DNA of 40,341 nucleotides from a virus (lineage: Duplodnaviria > Heunggongvirae > Uroviricota > Caudoviricetes), in IMG/VR virus record IMGVR_UViG_2619619135_000001, positions 1 through 40,341 of that record; one strand, given 5' to 3'. Position 1 is the stretch's first letter. The number at the start of each line of letters is the position of its first letter. This document shows, in pieces, positions 1,929 to 28,605 of the stretch. The position numbers were made by a program, and so were the translations under genes. A model generated the notes under the pieces. It worked only from the letters and a program-made list of their open reading frames with translations. It searched no databases and had not been told where the DNA came from.

Positions 1929-2762
1929 TTATTTCTGTAATCGGTTTATATTAACGTAAAGCATCTCGATTAGTTCTTTTGCATTTTTACTATAGTGCAA
2001 TTCTCTATGGCAATTCGGACAAAGGGCAACACAGTTATCTGTTGTATCAGCACCACCTGAAGACAGGGGAATTACATGATGCACTTCCAAATATGGGTTT
2101 CCATCATTTAAATAAAACGGAGCATTTTTACCACAGTTTTCACATATACCTTTACTTTGCTGTAAAATCCAAGCTTTTACCATCGGGTCTCGGACATAAA
2201 CTTTTTGTAGTCTTTCTACCTCAACTGGTTTCCTGGAGCCCTCGGGTTGACTCAACGTTTTCTTAATTAATTTACTAACCCTCATATTCAGAAGCGATTC
2301 ATCATCTGTAGGCTGTGAAAGCTCTGATAGTTCTCCACGTATTATAGACGCCCAAAAACTGTCACTATAAATACCTGGAACATTTATCAATATTCGTTTC
2401 GTTCTATTGCCGGAAGGAATTTCCTTTCTCCCCGTACGACTAAAATAAGCCTGATAACCACACATCTTCAAGCGTATATCGCGGGGGCTATTACCAATCA
2501 AAGTAAAATATTCACCAGGATGGATTTTTCTTTCATCCAAAGAATGCATATGTTTTCTGACTGATGATGACGCCAGATATACTACGACTTGGGATACACC
2601 AGAATCAACCAACCGTTCAATGATATAATCAAGAGCGATATTGTAATCTTTGTTTCTGTCACCCGGCCCCCACGACTCAAGGATTAGACCATAAACACCA
2701 TCCTCTTCACCTATCGAACACTCAGCTTTCAGTTCAATTCCATTATTATCAAAAACATGCAT
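1929..2762 (-). CDS. mcrA: 5-methylcytosine-specific restriction endonuclease McrA (HNH nuclease), 277 aa
   Basis: 277-aa ORF with a C-terminal HNH motif (CENCG...HHVIPLSSGG...CPNCH). Sequence and position next to pinE match e14 McrA as I recall it. Confidence 0.9.
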   Translation of the reverse strand: MHVFDNNGIELKAECSIGEEDGVYGLILESWGPGDRNKDYNIALDYIIERLVDSGVSQVVVYLASSSVRKHMHSLDERKIHPGEYFTLIGNSPRDIRLKMCGYQAYFSRTGRKEIPSGNRTKRILINVPGIYSDSFWASIIRGELSELSQPTDDESLLNMRVSKLIKKTLSQPEGSRKPVEVERLQKVYVRDPMVKAWILQQSKGICENCGKNAPFYLNDGNPYLEVHHVIPLSSGGADTTDNCVALCPNCHRELHYSKNAKELIEMLYVNINRLQK

Positions 2763-2868: not shown

Positions 2869-3423
2869 TTATTTATCCCCTGCAGGAAACCTCTTATACA
2901 AAGTTGACACACCAACATCATAGATAATCGCCACCTTCTGGCGAGGAGCTCCTGATGCAATTAATCGTCCGGCCTGTTCCCATTGTTCTGGTGTAAGTTT
3001 GGGACGACGTCCACCAATTCGTCCCTGTGCGCGAGCAGCTTCCAGTCCAGCTTTTGTTCTTTCAACAATCAGTTCACGCTCCATTTCAGCCAGGGCACCC
3101 ATCACATGAAAGAAAAAGCGCCCCATTGGGGTACTGGTATCAATTGAATCCGTCAGACTACGAAAGTTGATGCCTCGTTCGCGCAACTCCTCCACCAGCA
3201 CGACAAGATGCCGCATACTACGCCCCAGCCGATCCAGCTTCCAGACAACCAGAGTGTCCCCTGCCGATAATGTCCTGAGCAGTTTTTTCAGTCCCGGCCT
3301 TTCGGACTTTGTACCGCTTACCTTGTCTTCAAAAATCAGCTCGCATCCTGCACAGTTCAGCGCATTACGTTGTAGATCTGTGTTCTGGTCATTTGTTGAT
3401 ACGCGTACATAGCCAATAAGCAT
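2869..3423 (-). CDS. pinE: Serine DNA invertase Pin (Hin/Gin/Cin family)
   Basis: Seen: MLIGYVRVSTNDQNTDLQ resolvase N-terminus with the catalytic serine, and a C-terminal HTH. Start moved to ATG at 3421-3423 rather than the upstream in-frame MASFLLL extension. Adjacent to the invertible segment. Confidence 0.9.
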   Translation of the reverse strand: MLIGYVRVSTNDQNTDLQRNALNCAGCELIFEDKVSGTKSERPGLKKLLRTLSAGDTLVVWKLDRLGRSMRHLVVLVEELRERGINFRSLTDSIDTSTPMGRFFFHVMGALAEMERELIVERTKAGLEAARAQGRIGGRRPKLTPEQWEQAGRLIASGAPRQKVAIIYDVGVSTLYKRFPAGDK

Positions 3424-3449
3424 GGTAGATCCCCCTGACAAAAGCAGGA

Positions 3450-3959
3450 ATGATGCCATTTGCTCGTTATTTCTGCATTTTCATAAACGTTGGTTTGGGA
3501 GAAACGATAAATAAAGCCTCCGGAGCTATGCAGAAATCGGCTAATGGAGCTGATATTTCTGATGTATCAGCCTTCCGAAATGCGCTCCAGTTAGGGACCG
3601 CCGCAACACGAGATGTTGGAGCAGATAATGCCTCGAAGTTACTGGATTTAGACAGCTTCAGGTCAATGATGTCAGGGAATGGCTACATCTACATTCCATG
3701 CATTGCGACGACAGGAAACCCGGTGAAACTTATGTTGCAGTGGGGAACGGTGGCAACACAAAAGGGAGCTGATGCTGGATATGCCTTACCATTTGCTTTT
3801 CCCTATGCAGGCTTATTTGCGACCGGAAACCGTGGAACATCTGGCTACAATGCCGCGATGAATGTGCGTATTGCCAGCAGAACGCATATCAGTATTCAGA
3901 ACTGGTCGCCATCCGGAGAGGGCACCGAAGATTGTTGTTTTATCGCGCTGGGGTATTAA
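3450..3959 (+). CDS. Silent alternative tail-fibre C-terminal cassette (promoterless Stf variable part)
   Basis: Seen: the ORF has no tail-fibre N-terminus; it encodes NVGLGE across the recombination site and would be fused in frame to the Stf constant region after inversion. Confidence 0.65.
   Translation: MMPFARYFCIFINVGLGETINKASGAMQKSANGADISDVSAFRNALQLGTAATRDVGADNASKLLDLDSFRSMMSGNGYIYIPCIATTGNPVKLMLQWGTVATQKGADAGYALPFAFPYAGLFATGNRGTSGYNAAMNVRIASRTHISIQNWSPSGEGTEDCCFIALGY
3478..3503. other. Pin recombination site, pin-proximal (gix/hix-like 26-mer)
   Basis: Seen: TTTTCATAAACGTTGGTTTGGGAGAA. Its reverse complement shares the first 14 nt (TTCTCCCAAACCAA) with the site at 5399-5424. Confidence 0.7.
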
Positions 3960-10792: not shown

Positions 10793-11287
10793 CTATCTGA
10801 GTTGAACATCAATGGAATAAACATTACCACTCTTTATAAATTTAGAGTCCGTCCTTTCATCAAAGGATTCAAATGACTGTACCTTTGAAAACTTTTTCAT
10901 TTTATTTTCAAAAATACTTTCATTAACACCAGTTAAATACTTGAATGCTCTACCAGCAAGGACCTCATTACTTAAAGTTTGTGTGTTTTTATTGTCCTTG
11001 AAAAACCAAATAATAACCTTTTGTGGACATGATGGATTATAAACAGATATATAAAACTGCGGCTCATATTTTTCATCAGCATCATCGCCAAGCATTTCTT
11101 CAAAAGACAATTCTCTCCTGAATTCATATTGACGCTTAGTTATTCCTTCATCCTTTACTATCTCTTGCTTAACTGGTGCAATACCTATAGAAGAGATTAA
11201 TTCTGACTCATTAAAGCTGAACTTACACTCTTCCGCTGCCAAGTTAAAAGATAAAAGTGCAGATATAAAAAACACAAAGATACGCAT
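10793..11287 (-). CDS. Secreted protein of unknown function (AT-rich moron in the tail operon)
   Basis: Seen: signal-peptide-like N-terminus MRIFVFFISALLSFNLA|AEE; AAGGG SD 6 nt before the third ATG; a TATAAT element upstream; codon usage is visibly more AT-rich than the neighbours. Confidence 0.6.
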   Translation of the reverse strand: MRIFVFFISALLSFNLAAEECKFSFNESELISSIGIAPVKQEIVKDEGITKRQYEFRRELSFEEMLGDDADEKYEPQFYISVYNPSCPQKVIIWFFKDNKNTQTLSNEVLAGRAFKYLTGVNESIFENKMKKFSKVQSFESFDERTDSKFIKSGNVYSIDVQLR

Positions 11288-11386
11288 AATCATCCCTTCA
11301 ATCATTTGTAAGGAATGATTATATTAACTACTTAAAGTTGAAAACCCAAATTATGCCAGACAAAAACACATTAATCATTTTGTACA

Positions 11387-23726: not shown

Positions 23727-24629
23727 TCAAAATTTGAATATTACACTCTTACCATCTTCGCTTAATTGAAGACCATTACCTAATTTCAGATTCGCTTGTA
23801 ATGCAGACTGTCTAAATCCCTGAAGCCAAGATTCAAGGTTGAAATTATTAACTATATCGTCAATTAATGACGCCTTCCAAATTATTCCAAGCTGCAATGA
23901 CTCGGTATGCGTAACAAATTTTTTAGCATCATTTGAAACTTGCTCAAGATTCAGCTCACTGTTGAACATATTCATGCTGGCGTATATACCTAAGAAATGA
24001 TAAGCATTACCTGCATACATATTTCCATCTTTATCACCATACCCTCCTTTGGCCACTATCATGGCAGGAGATCCAGACATTCCAGGGAAAGCTGAGATAT
24101 CTAATACAATTGTTTTTTCACCATTGAAATCATATTCAGGCTCACTGGCGACACTTCCTGTTTTCCAAACAGGAAGCATATTTGCAGCATCATGAAAACC
24201 ATATGGATAGCCAATTAGTGTTACTCGTGCTGTCGGACCTTTATAAACACCCTCGTTCTTGACTCCACTGTTTAATGCTTCGAATTCGCAATCTTTAAGA
24301 TTATCTCCAAACAATGGAATTACTGCTATATCAGCATTTTTCTCACTTGCATGCTGAAGCCAAGTTGGTTTGCCGTTTTTAAAAAGAGGAATCTCAATGG
24401 TTTTGCTGCCACCTGATTTCACCCTAACTTTGAAGGAAATTGAGTCACCTAAAGGCGATTCTTTTGATTGTGGGCTATGTCCGGTGACAACATGATAATT
24501 TGTTACCAAGAATAAAAGTTGTTCTTCAATAGATTGATAAAAGAACCCTGTTCCCTGTGAAACTTGCACGCCATTCAAATTAAGACTAACCATTGTAGTC
24601 ACTAATGATAATGGATCTATATTTCCCAT
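23727..24629 (-). CDS. Trypsin-like (PA clan) serine protease, cytoplasmic, AT-rich moron
   Basis: Seen: catalytic-triad-like motifs TNYHVV (His), ADIAVIPL (Asp), GMSGSP (Ser); no signal peptide; AAGGAG SD 8 nt before the ATG. Confidence 0.7.
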   Translation of the reverse strand: MGNIDPLSLVTTMVSLNLNGVQVSQGTGFFYQSIEEQLLFLVTNYHVVTGHSPQSKESPLGDSISFKVRVKSGGSKTIEIPLFKNGKPTWLQHASEKNADIAVIPLFGDNLKDCEFEALNSGVKNEGVYKGPTARVTLIGYPYGFHDAANMLPVWKTGSVASEPEYDFNGEKTIVLDISAFPGMSGSPAMIVAKGGYGDKDGNMYAGNAYHFLGIYASMNMFNSELNLEQVSNDAKKFVTHTESLQLGIIWKASLIDDIVNNFNLESWLQGFRQSALQANLKLGNGLQLSEDGKSVIFKF

Positions 24630-24694: not shown

Positions 24695-25159
24695 TCATTT
24701 TTGGCACTGTCCCTTGATATAGCTCTGAAGATAGCTGACTTGCTTCGTCACTGTGACGATTCGCTCTCTAAGGGCGAAATAATCCCGTTCAGCGGAGTCA
24801 GTAAGTCTGGGGGAGGAAGCATCGCCCATGCCACCGGTGCCGGTCGCTCCGTTTGCTGAACAGTTTGCTTTGACCCGCAGCCGCTTACGGCCAGCATCAA
24901 TATCCCTACGCAGATTACTGATAGTGATTTTCGCATTAGCTAACTCCTTTGTATATCTGGCATCGAGTTCTGCTACATCACGTTGACGCTTCTGCATATC
25001 AGCGATGGTCGCCATAGCCGAATCTAATGCCATAGCATTCTCATCACGCTGCTTTTTGTATTCAATGGCTTTATTGTGGTAATGATTCACTGAACAGATA
25101 AAAGAACCAATGACAGTAACGAAGAATGCAGCGATAACCAGCTTATAGCTCAACTTCAT
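24695..25159 (-). CDS. Rz: i-spanin Rz
   Basis: 154-aa ORF with an N-terminal TM segment; similar to lambda Rz as I recall it (e.g. ASPRLTDSAERDYFALRER). Confidence 0.85.
   Translation of the reverse strand: MKLSYKLVIAAFFVTVIGSFICSVNHYHNKAIEYKKQRDENAMALDSAMATIADMQKRQRDVAELDARYTKELANAKITISNLRRDIDAGRKRLRVKANCSANGATGTGGMGDASSPRLTDSAERDYFALRERIVTVTKQVSYLQSYIKGQCQK
24748..24936 (-). CDS. Rz1: o-spanin lipoprotein Rz1 (embedded in Rz, +1 frame)
   Basis: Seen: lipobox LAVSGC and a Pro-rich segment (PPPDLLTPLNGIISP) resembling lambda Rz1. Confidence 0.8.
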   Translation of the reverse strand: MRKSLSVICVGILMLAVSGCGSKQTVQQTERPAPVAWAMLPPPDLLTPLNGIISPLESESSQ

Positions 25160-25619
25160 TTATCACTCCACCAGCCTCTTTAAACCTGGCAATCAGGTCA
25201 CCAATTTTATGTTCATACTGACCGTAACCAGCGCCCGGCAAAGAAGCCCATATATTGCTGCAACGGTCGATTGCCTGACGAATATCGCCGCGATCAATCA
25301 TCGTCAAAGCGCCACGCTCTTTAATCTGTTGCAGTGCCACAGCGTCCTGGCTTTTGGGGGAGAAGTCTTTCAAACCAAGCTGTTTACGGTAAGCATCCCA
25401 CCAGCGTGAAAGAAGTTGATAACGGCCTGCGGCTGTTGATTTGAGTTTCGGGTTTAGTGTGACAAGTTTGCGAGGATGATCGGAGTAATCGGTAAATAGC
25501 TCTCCGCCAACAATGACGTCATAACCATGATTTCTGGTTTTCTGCCGTCCGTTATCCGTTCCCTCTGACCATGCCACCATATCCAGGAAAGCTTTACGCT
25601 GGGAATTTAGTACCTGCAT
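25143..25619 (-). CDS. R: Endolysin, lambda R-type lytic transglycosylase
   Basis: 158-aa ORF nearly collinear with lambda R as I recall it (NSQRKAFLDMVAWSEGTDNGRQKTRNHGYDVIVGG...). Confidence 0.9.
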   Translation of the reverse strand: MQVLNSQRKAFLDMVAWSEGTDNGRQKTRNHGYDVIVGGELFTDYSDHPRKLVTLNPKLKSTAAGRYQLLSRWWDAYRKQLGLKDFSPKSQDAVALQQIKERGALTMIDRGDIRQAIDRCSNIWASLPGAGYGQYEHKIGDLIARFKEAGGVINEVEL

Positions 25620-25622
25620 AAA

Positions 25623-25949
25623 TTACTCCTTAGAGCCACCAAACTTGTTACCGATTACTCTCATTGCAGCCCCTCGAATAGCATCAACACCGATCAGCCC
25701 CACCCCACCACCAATGGCAACAGATAGTGATTTAGGCCATCCGACATACTCAAGAGCGGATGCAAAAGTCAGCGTCAGAGCGCCACAGAGTAGAATTTCG
25801 AGTGTTTTTCGCTTCCAGCCGCCACCACCGCCAAAATAGGCAATACGTAAACCAGCCATAACAATCGACATAATCACTGCGCCCAGCGGTGTGTCTCCAC
25901 GCCACCAGCTCTGGACCAACTCCAGCCAGGTATTTGGGTTATGAGGCAT
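25623..25949 (-). CDS. Putative holin
   Basis: 108-aa ORF with hydrophobic segments immediately upstream of the endolysin; not lambda S-like. Confidence 0.5.
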   Translation of the reverse strand: MPHNPNTWLELVQSWWRGDTPLGAVIMSIVMAGLRIAYFGGGGGWKRKTLEILLCGALTLTFASALEYVGWPKSLSVAIGGGVGLIGVDAIRGAAMRVIGNKFGGSKE

Positions 25950-26087
25950 TTGTAGTTATCTCTCACCTCGCTGATACAGCAGGTGCAAATTGAGGGAACA
26001 TCATGTACCGCAAATCAGAAGCGGAAACGTCAAAGAAGCCGAACCGATGGACAACTGCGGAATAGGCCAGGACCAACGAATCCCCAG

Positions 26088-26123
26088 CCCCAGAAACGAC
26101 AAAACCCGCTCGACGGCGGGTTT
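26088..26123 (-). terminator. tR'-like intrinsic terminator upstream of the lysis genes
   Basis: Seen (minus strand): AAACCCGC-cgtcga-GCGGGTTT followed by TGTCGTTTCT, about 140 nt upstream of the holin start. Confidence 0.45.
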
Positions 26124-26210
26124 AAGCTGTGTGGCGAAGTAACCACTCTTAACACGATACAATAGTTTTTGCGTACGCGTTAACTTTTTATTATCCTCAT
26201 ACAACCTATA

Positions 26211-27365
26211 TTGTCCCCAACAAAAACGAAAAAAATGCCAAACCTAAAAATCAACCACGTTATTGTTCACGAGCTATTAAAAGAGAAAGATAAAGATTTT
26301 GACCACTCGAAACGATACAACCTGCGTGATTCTGAACTTGATAAAACAAACGCTGTTGTAATTTCCCTTGTTGAAGGGGTCGTTGCTCTTTATGGCTCTA
26401 AAGGCAACTCAGCACATTACGGTGTATTCAAAAGCGCCCCAAAAGAACAAGGTCCAATCCCGGTATTATTTGATCAGTATCACCAAACAGCAACTTCTCA
26501 ATCTATTGACTTTATTAACTTAACAAAGAAAATAATGGAACAAATGTATCATTCAGCCAAATCTCAATCTTGGTCTTCTGGAGGATACATTGTTTTTACT
26601 GATTATATTTCAGCAGGCATCAGATATTTTCTTGTAGCTATGATAAAAAAAACGAATGGAGTAACAATTAGCGAAAAACTCGAGCCAGAAGAAATGATAC
26701 ATCTGGAGTTAAATAATATTAACCAAGCTGCAAAAATAAATTTTCACTTATACTATCAATATCACCAAGCTGATGATGTTCAAAAAACAGAATTAAGCTA
26801 CTTAAGCTTCATCAACAAAACTACGGGACAGTCTGCTGCTGCATATTTCATCGCAGCTCTTGGGTGTGATAAGGGGATCGCATCAGCTGGAGCAACCCGC
26901 AAACTTCCAAATGAGGTAAAAAAGTTTTTTAAAAAACACAAAGAATTACGCCCTCATGCAAATGCAGTAAGAAACGCAGTAATAAAATATTTAGAATCCC
27001 AGTTCGGAAACAATTGCTCTGCAAAGCTTACAGATATTGAATCTATTTCTGCAACTCACATGGCATTTTTAGATGATGATAAAAAAGCCCCCCTAGTAAG
27101 AGAGCTCATGCAATATTTAAACAGCGAGGAGGTTAGAGTTCCTTCGGAGTTCGTCATAAATAAAACATCTCTTGACAAATTAAGGAATGTTATTTTCAAA
27201 GCAGATCAATATAGTTTTAATTTCGACAAAGATTTGCTTGGCATAACTACTGATGCTACAATTTTCTATGACGCTGAGCATGGGAATCTTACATTTAACA
27301 GACTCCCTATAGAAGCACAAAAAAAAATAAAAGATGCCTTAAAAGAAATGAATTTGTTAAACTGA
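26211..27365 (+). CDS. NdpA/YejK (NA37)-family nucleoid-associated protein homologue, moron gene A
   Basis: Seen: AT-rich ORF on the opposite strand to the late genes; track start is TTG at 26211, alternative ATG at 26235. Motifs match NdpA as I recall it: INHVIVHELLK, GGYIVFTDYISAGIRYFLVAMIK, SYLSFINKTTGQSAAAYFIAALG. Confidence 0.65.
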   Translation: MSPTKTKKMPNLKINHVIVHELLKEKDKDFDHSKRYNLRDSELDKTNAVVISLVEGVVALYGSKGNSAHYGVFKSAPKEQGPIPVLFDQYHQTATSQSIDFINLTKKIMEQMYHSAKSQSWSSGGYIVFTDYISAGIRYFLVAMIKKTNGVTISEKLEPEEMIHLELNNINQAAKINFHLYYQYHQADDVQKTELSYLSFINKTTGQSAAAYFIAALGCDKGIASAGATRKLPNEVKKFFKKHKELRPHANAVRNAVIKYLESQFGNNCSAKLTDIESISATHMAFLDDDKKAPLVRELMQYLNSEEVRVPSEFVINKTSLDKLRNVIFKADQYSFNFDKDLLGITTDATIFYDAEHGNLTFNRLPIEAQKKIKDALKEMNLLN

Positions 27366-27384
27366 GTTATAAAAGAAAAATAAA

Positions 27385-28605
27385 ATGAATCAGTTGAAAA
27401 TTGTAGTAGATTTATTTAGAAAATCTAAAACACCCCATTTCGACGGTGTTAAGTTTTCGGCGTCAATAGATTATACAACAGATATTAAAATGCTGTTGAC
27501 TACTATGCTAGATGATAATTTCAACGAAGGTTCATTCGATGAAATTGAAATTGATGGTTGCGAGATTTACGATGGAAATGATCTGCCTAATTCAGGAACC
27601 ACTTTAACATATTCATTTAAAGTCGCACGTAGAAGTGCAGATAGATTTTATGCTTCAAAAAGAGAGTTTATAGAAATTAATACTCTTCGAAAAGGCGTAA
27701 TGCCTAAGAACTATTACATTGCAGAAAGTGATTTTTATTCTTATGATGCCCAAAAGCCTGACTATATAATGACAATTGAAAAAATTTGTCAATTAATTTC
27801 ATGTTTATCGAACATAGCTCATTTCCACGATACCAAAAGTGATAGAAACACCAGTTTCTATCGCCTTGTTTTTGTACTACATTCAGAATCGAAATCAACA
27901 ACAGCAGTAATTGAAACTAATTTAACAGAGGAGGTCCTTGATATTGAAGACCTAAATATCAATCTTATAGCCAATTTATCTAAATCCGATGCAAGCAAAG
28001 ATAATCACTATCTTGAAAAACTGAACACATTCAGAAATACACTGATTGAATATATTTCAAAGACAAATGGCTCATTTATCAATATAATAAAAAACTGGAA
28101 CGATATCAATGAGTTATATAGCAACAACCTTGCTGTATATATGTCTGCATTCTCTTTCCATAAAACAAGAAAAGAGATTGCAGATGCTGAAATTGATTAT
28201 GCAGACAAAATATCTAAAGTCGTATCTGAAATAGCCAACAAAGCTTTAGCCATCCCTGTATCACTAGTTGCTGCAATATCGATATTTCAAATGACAGGGG
28301 AATTAGTTTCTATAGTGGCATTTTTAGGGATCTTATTGACATCTATTATTACTTATCTAGTCGCAGTGTCTCAAAAACGTCAACTTGAACGCATAATTCA
28401 TGCAAAAGATACCTTATTCGATACTATGATGAACAGATTGAGTGAAGAGCAAAATGAACTCAAACTCAGATTACAAATAGCTCAAATAGAGTTAAACAAA
28501 AATGAAGTATTCTGCATAAGAGTATTGGACTTAATGCGCTGCTTATCATGGATGCCAACATGTGTTGGCATATTAGCTTTATTAATAAATGACGTGCTAA
28601 TTTAA
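27385..28605 (+). CDS. Membrane-anchored protein of unknown function, moron gene B
   Basis: Seen: 19 nt after gene A; about 280-aa soluble N-domain then hydrophobic stretches (AIPVSLVAAISIFQ...VSIVAFLGILLTSIITYLVAV and C-terminal CVGILALLINDVLI); its stop overlaps the Q stop convergently. Confidence 0.65.
   Translation: MNQLKIVVDLFRKSKTPHFDGVKFSASIDYTTDIKMLLTTMLDDNFNEGSFDEIEIDGCEIYDGNDLPNSGTTLTYSFKVARRSADRFYASKREFIEINTLRKGVMPKNYYIAESDFYSYDAQKPDYIMTIEKICQLISCLSNIAHFHDTKSDRNTSFYRLVFVLHSESKSTTAVIETNLTEEVLDIEDLNINLIANLSKSDASKDNHYLEKLNTFRNTLIEYISKTNGSFINIIKNWNDINELYSNNLAVYMSAFSFHKTRKEIADAEIDYADKISKVVSEIANKALAIPVSLVAAISIFQMTGELVSIVAFLGILLTSIITYLVAVSQKRQLERIIHAKDTLFDTMMNRLSEEQNELKLRLQIAQIELNKNEVFCIRVLDLMRCLSWMPTCVGILALLINDVLI

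Follow-up and report, generated by a model that had tools for sequence, protein, structure and literature searches.

A gene pair adjoining the Q antiterminator gene of an Escherichia coli lambdoid prophage is a divergent homologue of the DS-1 anti-phage system

The window analysed here is a stretch of 40,341 nucleotides, the full length of the IMG/VR virus record IMGVR_UViG_2619619135_000001 (Caudoviricetes), and represents an Escherichia coli lambdoid prophage with an SfII/phiP27/e14-like layout. A near-identical prophage of strain 20A24 adjoins tRNA-Thr and proA. Between the Q antiterminator gene and the holin gene of this element lie two plus-strand genes, termed A and B, within an otherwise minus-strand region. 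A encodes an NA37/YejK-like protein and B a membrane protein, and by sequence comparison the pair is a divergent homologue of the two-gene system DS-1. The features of the locus, in window coordinates, are as follows.

25623..25949, minus strand: holin gene (PF05106, E 5.7e-25; RefSeq "phage holin, lambda family")
26102..26123, minus strand: terminator-like hairpin and T-run (8-bp stem with 5 GC pairs, then TGTCGTTTCT), separating the holin gene from the conserved block
26122..26189, minus strand: conserved non-coding block that immediately precedes A and is common to many lambdoid phages
26190..28621, no strand assigned: variable cargo segment, comprising the cassette and 45 bp upstream of the A ATG, bounded by the SfII homology breakpoints
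26235..27365, plus strand: gene A, 376 aa, ATG start as in RefSeq; putative PagA/DS-1A-like sensor
27385..28605, plus strand: gene B, 406-aa membrane protein; putative PagB/DS-1B-like effector
28602..28964, minus strand: Q antiterminator gene (PF06530, E 1e-44; RefSeq "antiterminator Q family protein")

The two cassette genes are separated by 19 nt, and GC content is 0.32-0.34 over 26500-28500 as compared with approximately 0.53-0.58 in the late and early genes on either side. B and Q are convergent, with stop codons that overlap by 4 nt. Downstream of the conserved block, the lysis genes begin with the holin gene. An open reading frame (ORF) finder also returned an alternative TTG start for gene A at 26211, which extends it to a 384-aa ORF.

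Profile searches placed A in the Pfam family NA37 (PF04245) with a score of 158.4 bits against a gathering cutoff of 24.6, and the match joined residues 18-365 of the 384-aa ORF to positions 1-320 of the 325-position profile. Judged by this coverage, A is a full-length NA37/YejK-like protein. Its score against the NCBIfam YejK equivalog model NF001557 was 132.6 bits, below the cutoff of 341, and on these scores A is a paralogue of YejK and not the housekeeping protein itself. A was also matched by phrog_3767 (E 1.6e-80) and by E. coli YejK (PDB 9be2; E 8e-13), to which it is alignable over approximately 265 residues, and it is recorded in RefSeq as WP_341860198.1, "nucleoid-associated protein". 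The predicted isoelectric point (pI) of 8.2 and this homology lend indirect support to a putative role as a non-specific DNA-binding nucleoid protein. In the 376-aa form, NA37 begins at about residue 10 and no cysteine pairs are present at the N-terminus.

B is laid out as an acidic alpha/beta N-domain (residues ~1-205), conserved stalk helices (~206-285), a hydrophobic hairpin (~286-328), an amphipathic helix and a final hydrophobic helix (~385-406). Hydropathy peaks at approximately residues 286-303, 307-328 and 385-406 follow a soluble N-terminal region, and an AlphaFold2 model (pLDDT 87.6) places helices at 289-302, 306-351 and 390-405. B was matched by phrog_5023 (E 1.6e-126), while no Pfam domain matched it and a sequence search against the PDB found no match. 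The net charge of residues 1-205 is -9 (pI 4.9), and the region is acidic in 41 of 41 members of the B family (pI 4.7-5.6) and in DS-1B as well. Modelled alone, the N-domain reached a pLDDT of 90; comparison of this isolated model with solved folds gave no match and no catalytic fold, and a fold search with B gave no clear pore or enzyme fold. These results agree with a prior sequence-only reading of the stretch, which had described two linked AT-rich plus-strand genes between Q and the holin gene, the first NdpA/NA37-like and the second a soluble N-domain followed by hydrophobic helices. Its coordinates, 19-nt spacer, base composition and neighbours were all borne out, A scored as a member of the family well above the gathering cutoff, the two sequence blocks that it had singled out align to E. 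coli YejK (PDB 9be2) precisely as it stated, and transmembrane (TM) helices in B were supported by both hydropathy and the AlphaFold2 model.

DS-1 (working identifier D390) was found with DefensePredictor (DeWeirdt et al., bioRxiv January 2025 and Science April 2026; PMC13092281). It consists of DS-1A (WP_000355468.1, NA37, 391 aa) and DS-1B (WP_000150292.1, 404 aa), in which the authors annotate residues 269-404 as the TM region (PMC13092281). On a low-copy plasmid in MG1655 and under its own promoter, cloned DS-1 lowered plating by 7.6 logs for Bas1, 2.7 for Bas26, 1.7 for both Bas3 and T3, and 1.0 for T5; the paper offers no mechanism (PMC13092281). NCBIfam now models the two proteins as NF053868 (DS1_1, "nucleoid-associated anti-phage protein") and NF053869 (DS1_2, "anti-phage protein").

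A matched DS1_1 with an E-value of 4.6e-29 over positions 25-367 of 369, and B matched DS1_2 with an E-value of 1.6e-29 over positions 31-335 of 337. By BLASTP, A was 25% identical to DS-1A (E 4e-13) and B was 22% identical to DS-1B (E 4e-8). The family of the window B, whose named members are all from Enterobacterales, comprises 70 clusters at 90% identity with lengths of approximately 400-418 aa; the DS-1B family, gathered separately, comprises 69 clusters. Alignment of the two families by hhalign (41 and 32 sequences, respectively) scored 99.3% with an E-value of 1.5e-20 over 302 columns at 19% identity, and the first ~85 residues of B lay outside the match. Collectively, the BLASTP and hhalign results indicate that the window pair is homologous to DS-1 yet deeply diverged, and the pair is, on these alignments, a divergent homologue of DS-1. 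A profile search of 1.84 billion representatives recovered 1,026 relatives of B, 194 of them at an E-value of 1e-30 or below; almost all have 400-430 aa and match over their full length, and the set extends at least to Xanthomonas. PADLOC v2 (2023) returned no match for A or B, which is uninformative on novelty because its database predates DS-1. Among the entries listed in the accessible portion of the DefensePredictor tables (PMC13092281), the RefSeq accessions of the window proteins are absent, and two accessions given there as predicted defence genes may represent the type of allele at locus L002, as judged only from protein lengths and from an accession number next to that of the Q at this locus.

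The linkage of the two genes was examined at 62 loci with a relative of B, 11 of them from general assemblies (six genera) and 51 on viral contigs, which together contain 44 non-identical B sequences. At every one of the 62, A lies directly upstream of B, the interval between them ranging from -47 to +39 nt, and at 61 the 3' end of B is abutted or overlapped by a PF06530 Q gene that is convergent with it. The exception is the most divergent relative (27% identity; L064, 3830-6227, plus strand), in which the NA37-then-B pairing is kept without Q, in a co-directional setting between a Dam methylase gene and a lysis cluster with a GH19 endolysin. A and B diverge together (Spearman 0.90-0.93), while the divergence of Q is uncorrelated with that of B (-0.10). 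Q retains 55-90% identity while B drops to 35%, and the possibility that Q and the cassette form one co-evolving module was rejected for this lack of correlation. Within B, the stalk preceding the membrane hairpin is the most conserved segment (mean pairwise identity 0.60) and also the segment best kept between B and DS-1B, whereas variability peaks in the first half of the N-domain (0.36). The divergence of A followed that of the B N-domain (rho 0.88) slightly better than that of the stalk and TM part (rho 0.75), in correlations uncorrected for phylogeny. This pattern fits, and is not proof of, a layout in which a conserved core with the membrane-effector function bears a variable N-domain that binds A.

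A count over 5,426 complete E. coli genomes found DS-1 in 106 of them, a second allele, with 68% identity in A and 53% in B, in 30, and the allele of the window in 6. Each E. coli allele is at least 99% uniform internally. Two variants of the arrangement were noted among the loci. In IMG/VR contig L014, B is 100% identical to the window B, and the best A ORF has only 223 aa, with its start 500 nt away from the conserved block, which suggests that the A gene is disrupted in this copy. In three Salmonella enterica loci (L009-L011, 3402-8746), the cassette abuts a 171-aa PF06530 Q, and a second Q-like gene (DUF1133/antitermQ) lies with hok/gef and rem between the cassette and the lysis genes, so that this prophage carries two antiterminator genes.

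The position of the cassette was defined by comparison with other lambdoid phages. The window and SfII are 90.7% identical by blastn over 25075-26189 and 90.8% identical over 28622-29975, with no match between, and the homology breaks cleanly at 26189/26190 and at 28621/28622. The conserved block at the holin side of this segment is 91-98% identical in SfII, mEp460 and Stx2a phages, with shorter matches of 97-100% in phiP27 and SfIV and weaker ones of 84-87% in some other phages. A stretch of about 60 bp of it (26122-26182) precedes the A ORF by no more than about 75 nt at the majority of the 62 loci, even where identity in A and B is as low as 35-47%, and the block is also present in many lambdoid phages that lack the cassette. 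The block is probably the cognate late promoter of Q (PR') with its qut site, and the strong terminator-like hairpin at 26102-26123 may be a tR'-like element. A minus-strand promoter-like site at 26217-26190 was considered for PR' and was rejected because it sits in cassette-specific DNA. Ten terminator-like hairpins were counted in the window at 25500-29200, against 2.7 +/- 1.5 expected from shuffled sequence, a count that AT-richness may inflate; two of those inside the AT-rich cassette genes lie at 27839-27864 (bidirectional, in B) and 27085-27107.

The same slot holds other genes in sister phages. SfII carries a different opposite-strand pair there, SfII_50 and SfII_49 (L012, 3112-4726, plus strand), which are annotated as hypothetical and match the PADLOC candidate system components PDC-M53A (E 2e-32) and PDC-M53B (E 3e-54), respectively. 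In phiP27, the 409-aa hypothetical protein L22 is encoded between Q and the block (L013, 3069-4298, minus strand), on the strand of Q, unlike the other cargos; its C-terminal half matches the validated defence gene PD-Lambda-1 (E 2e-89). SfIV, mEp460 and an Stx2a phage contain other cargo of unassigned kind, and DS-1 and a Klebsiella homologue occupy exactly this Q-adjacent position. Tight abutment to Q was considered as a trait specific to the A-B pair and rejected; since other cargos abut Q equally closely, it is a property of the slot. The sequence-only reading had called the pair a moron in the position used by stx genes. The first part holds, as the pair is accessory (6 of 5,426 E. coli genomes) and is no conserved core gene of related phages, with unrelated cargo in its place in SfII, SfIV, mEp460, Stx2a phage and phiP27. 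The analogy with stx was imprecise: in the Stx2a phage, stx lies beyond the promoter-like block and inside the late operon, and because the cassette lies between Q and the block on the opposite strand, the two slots are distinct.

A second defence system bears on the function of the pair. PANGU systems were found through linkage to defence islands, in a report that does not mention prophages (Li et al., bioRxiv, April 2026; 10.64898/2026.04.06.716658). Type II PANGU combines a YejK-like nucleoid-associated protein (NAP), Pag2A, with Pag2B, which has an acidic N-terminal "DNA-mimic" (DMK) domain and a C-terminal TM domain; type I combines the NAP Pag1A with the GRel toxSAS Pag1B, and there the NAP activates the effector (10.64898/2026.04.06.716658). 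The E. coli type II system, PANGU-Ecu, requires both genes, is non-toxic whether these are expressed singly or paired, does not count as a classical toxin-antitoxin, and protects against T4, though not T1 or T5, by abortive infection (Abi) (10.64898/2026.04.06.716658). T4 escapes through mutations in denA (EndoII), Pag2A-GFP departs the nucleoid upon infection, and Pag2A binds Pag2B at its acidic N-domain with a KD of 19 nM (10.64898/2026.04.06.716658).

Because the homologous DS-1 and the similarly composed type II PANGU both defend experimentally, the cassette is best read as a prophage-borne two-gene Abi system, in which a NAP sensor is paired with a TM effector as a divergent DS-1 allele of type II PANGU composition; we place the probability of this explanation at approximately 0.65. 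In the proposed mechanism, A would coat chromosomal DNA non-specifically in the lysogen, and B would be anchored in the inner membrane by its C-terminal helices with the acidic N-domain and stalk in the cytoplasm. An infecting lytic phage that degrades the host chromosome would free A, and free A would then bind the acidic N-domain of B, which would compromise the membrane. The infected cell would stop growing and phage spread would be blocked. The present analysis contributes domain content, homology to DS-1A and DS-1B, A-then-B linkage, co-divergence, charge, TM helices, distribution and position; the anti-phage phenotype, the need for both genes, Abi, NAP relocalisation and binding of the NAP to an acidic domain come only from the literature on the relatives. 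The defence-related nature of other slot cargo (PDC-M53 and the PD-Lambda-1-like gene) also counts in favour. The sequence-only reading had arrived at a DNA-binding sensor coupled to a membrane effector in abortive infection, and in the light of DS-1 and type II PANGU this stands as the best interpretation. Its further statement that no characterised system has this composition does not stand, given DS-1 (2025-2026), type II PANGU (2026) and the NCBIfam models of the DS-1 pair.

Several observations weigh against this explanation. Identity between the window pair and DS-1 is 19-25% (25% for A and 19-22% for B), and both scores fall under the equivalog cutoffs of the DS-1 models, with A at 101.5 bits against 330 on DS1_1 and B at 103.1 bits against 315 on DS1_2. 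A lacks the zinc ribbon of DS-1A. The likeness to type II PANGU is drawn from composition and charge. The charge of -9 on the B N-domain is only moderate and its fold is unmatched, which leaves DNA mimicry as a candidate property. A consensus promoter scan upstream of A found no credible plus-strand site. The phage spectra also differ: DS-1 blocks Bas1, Bas26 and T3, and weakly T5, while PANGU-Ecu acts on T4 and not on T1 or T5; triggers may therefore differ between alleles. Finally, activity of the window allele and its trigger are carried over by analogy with the relatives, and the membrane action of B is inferred.

An unlikely alternative that still outranks the others is defence with another trigger or output, in which A might sense phage DNA or protein and B might exclude superinfection or block injection without killing the cell. 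Membrane-anchored prophage proteins often act in exclusion. DS-1 blocks phages outside the PANGU-Ecu spectrum, with little overlap between the two, and the fold search with B pointed to no clear pore or enzyme. The PANGU authors explicitly leave the activation and action of Pag2B open (10.64898/2026.04.06.716658). However, the sole system of like composition to have been studied mechanistically showed Abi, denA escape and NAP relocalisation, and the strict co-divergence of A and B, together with the acidic N-domain, fits a switch in which A binds B. These points favour the Abi explanation.

It is considerably less probable that the pair serves the cycle of the prophage itself, through nucleoid remodelling, lysis timing or transcription antisense to Q that stabilises lysogeny. 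Such a role would suit a cassette that adjoins the holin gene and Q and whose 3' end overlaps Q convergently in nearly all loci, and proteins of the YejK family are general chromatin proteins. Against this, the cassette lies on the opposite strand behind the putative late promoter, it is rare and is replaced by unrelated cargo in close sister phages, and the abutment to Q recurs with that other cargo. In addition, when carried on a plasmid, the homologue DS-1 protects a host that is free of the prophage. The pair could also be a toxin-antitoxin or addiction module that stabilises the prophage, B being a membrane toxin and A its antidote. This would agree with two tightly linked, co-evolving genes on a mobile element, one of them for a membrane protein, but is very improbable, since the type II PANGU genes are non-toxic alone or paired, the authors exclude a classical toxin-antitoxin, and the type I NAP activates its effector and does not neutralise it.

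The findings at the slot permit a broader and tentative proposal, to which we give little more weight than to defence by another route: the gap between Q and the late promoter might be an undescribed lambdoid defence hotspot, in which highly diverged NAP-TM alleles and unrelated defence systems are exchanged by recombination between two conserved anchors, and in which the convergent, stop-overlapping orientation would be functional. A literature search for the Q-adjacent slot as a known hotspot returned nothing relevant, and the Q-to-late-promoter context was not found in those portions of the DS-1 and PANGU papers that were available as text. If the proposal were true, lytic transcription through Q would run antisense to the cassette and silence Abi, so that the prophage would not trigger its own Abi upon induction of the lytic cycle, and, conversely, transcription of the cassette would hold down leaky expression of Q in the lysogen.

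Other loci of the window prophage were also recorded. At 23727-24629 (minus strand), between the HNH/terminase genes and the lysis genes, an AT-rich gene encodes a 300-aa protein, a trypsin-like peptidase by Pfam (Trypsin_2, E 1e-9), that is also matched by PDC-S45, a candidate defence family of PADLOC (E 1.3e-44); its equivalent in E. coli 20A24 is interrupted by an IS3 element. At the AT-rich left end, a 277-aa HNH protein (1929-2762, minus strand) gives a full-length match (E 6.5e-203) to the PADLOC model for type IV methyl-directed restriction enzymes and presumably resembles McrA of prophage e14. With this HNH protein and the other loci, the element has at least three defence or candidate defence loci. 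An AT-rich 170-aa ORF (10793-11305, minus strand; GC ~0.36-0.41) lies between the DNA-circularisation and tape-measure genes, which are merely ~60 nt apart in the 20A24 prophage; it had no Pfam or PADLOC match and is possibly another moron, in the tail module. A resolvase/invertase gene at 2869-3459 (minus strand) abuts an ORF at 3450-3959 (plus strand) with a tail-fibre C-terminal domain, and the region 2869-3959 looks like a Gin/Cin-type invertible host-range switch.

The class to which the pair belongs was validated only in 2025-2026, and the mechanism of its membrane effector is still unsolved there. The composition is thus of a kind already known, and the window pair adds a divergent allele and not a new kind of system. 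What is new is the linkage of A to B at 62 of 62 loci, the convergent Q at 61 of 62, the conserved flanking block, and a slot held in common with DS-1 and with other defence cargo. DS-1 and its relatives emerge as cargo of prophages that keeps to a single slot, with Q on one side and a probable late promoter on the other, and more defence cargo could be found simply by reading the interval from Q to the block. For mapping the specificity of sensor for effector, a natural allelic series is provided by the E. coli alleles, at least three of them discrete, and by the roughly 1,000 representatives of the family, and the conserved stalk motif is a target for mutagenesis.

Among known systems, YejK (NdpA; PDB 9be2) shares its Pfam family with A; unlike the housekeeping protein, A is prophage-borne, AT-rich and obligately paired with B. 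Type I PANGU resembles the window pair in having a NAP sensor of the same Pfam family and an effector with an acidic NAP-binding domain, but that effector is a cytoplasmic alarmone synthetase and B has no such domain. Type II PANGU is closer, being an operon of two cistrons, for a YejK-like NAP and for a partner with an acidic N-domain and C-terminal TM region; it was found by linkage to defence islands, whereas pairs of the window family lie in a prophage slot adjoining Q (61 of 62 loci). From DS-1, the window pair differs at the N-terminus of the first protein, where DS-1A has a CxxC...CxxC zinc ribbon (beginning MDITCLECG...CDKCG, with NA37 from residue 42), and in that the DS-1 phenotype was measured by plating while the window allele is known here from sequence alone. 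Both share the gene order, with an NA37 protein followed, in tight linkage, by a protein of ~405 aa with a C-terminal TM region, and the TM helices of B fall where that region was placed in DS-1B (269-404). The slot is shared as well, each pair converging on a PF06530 Q gene within lambdoid prophages of Enterobacterales.

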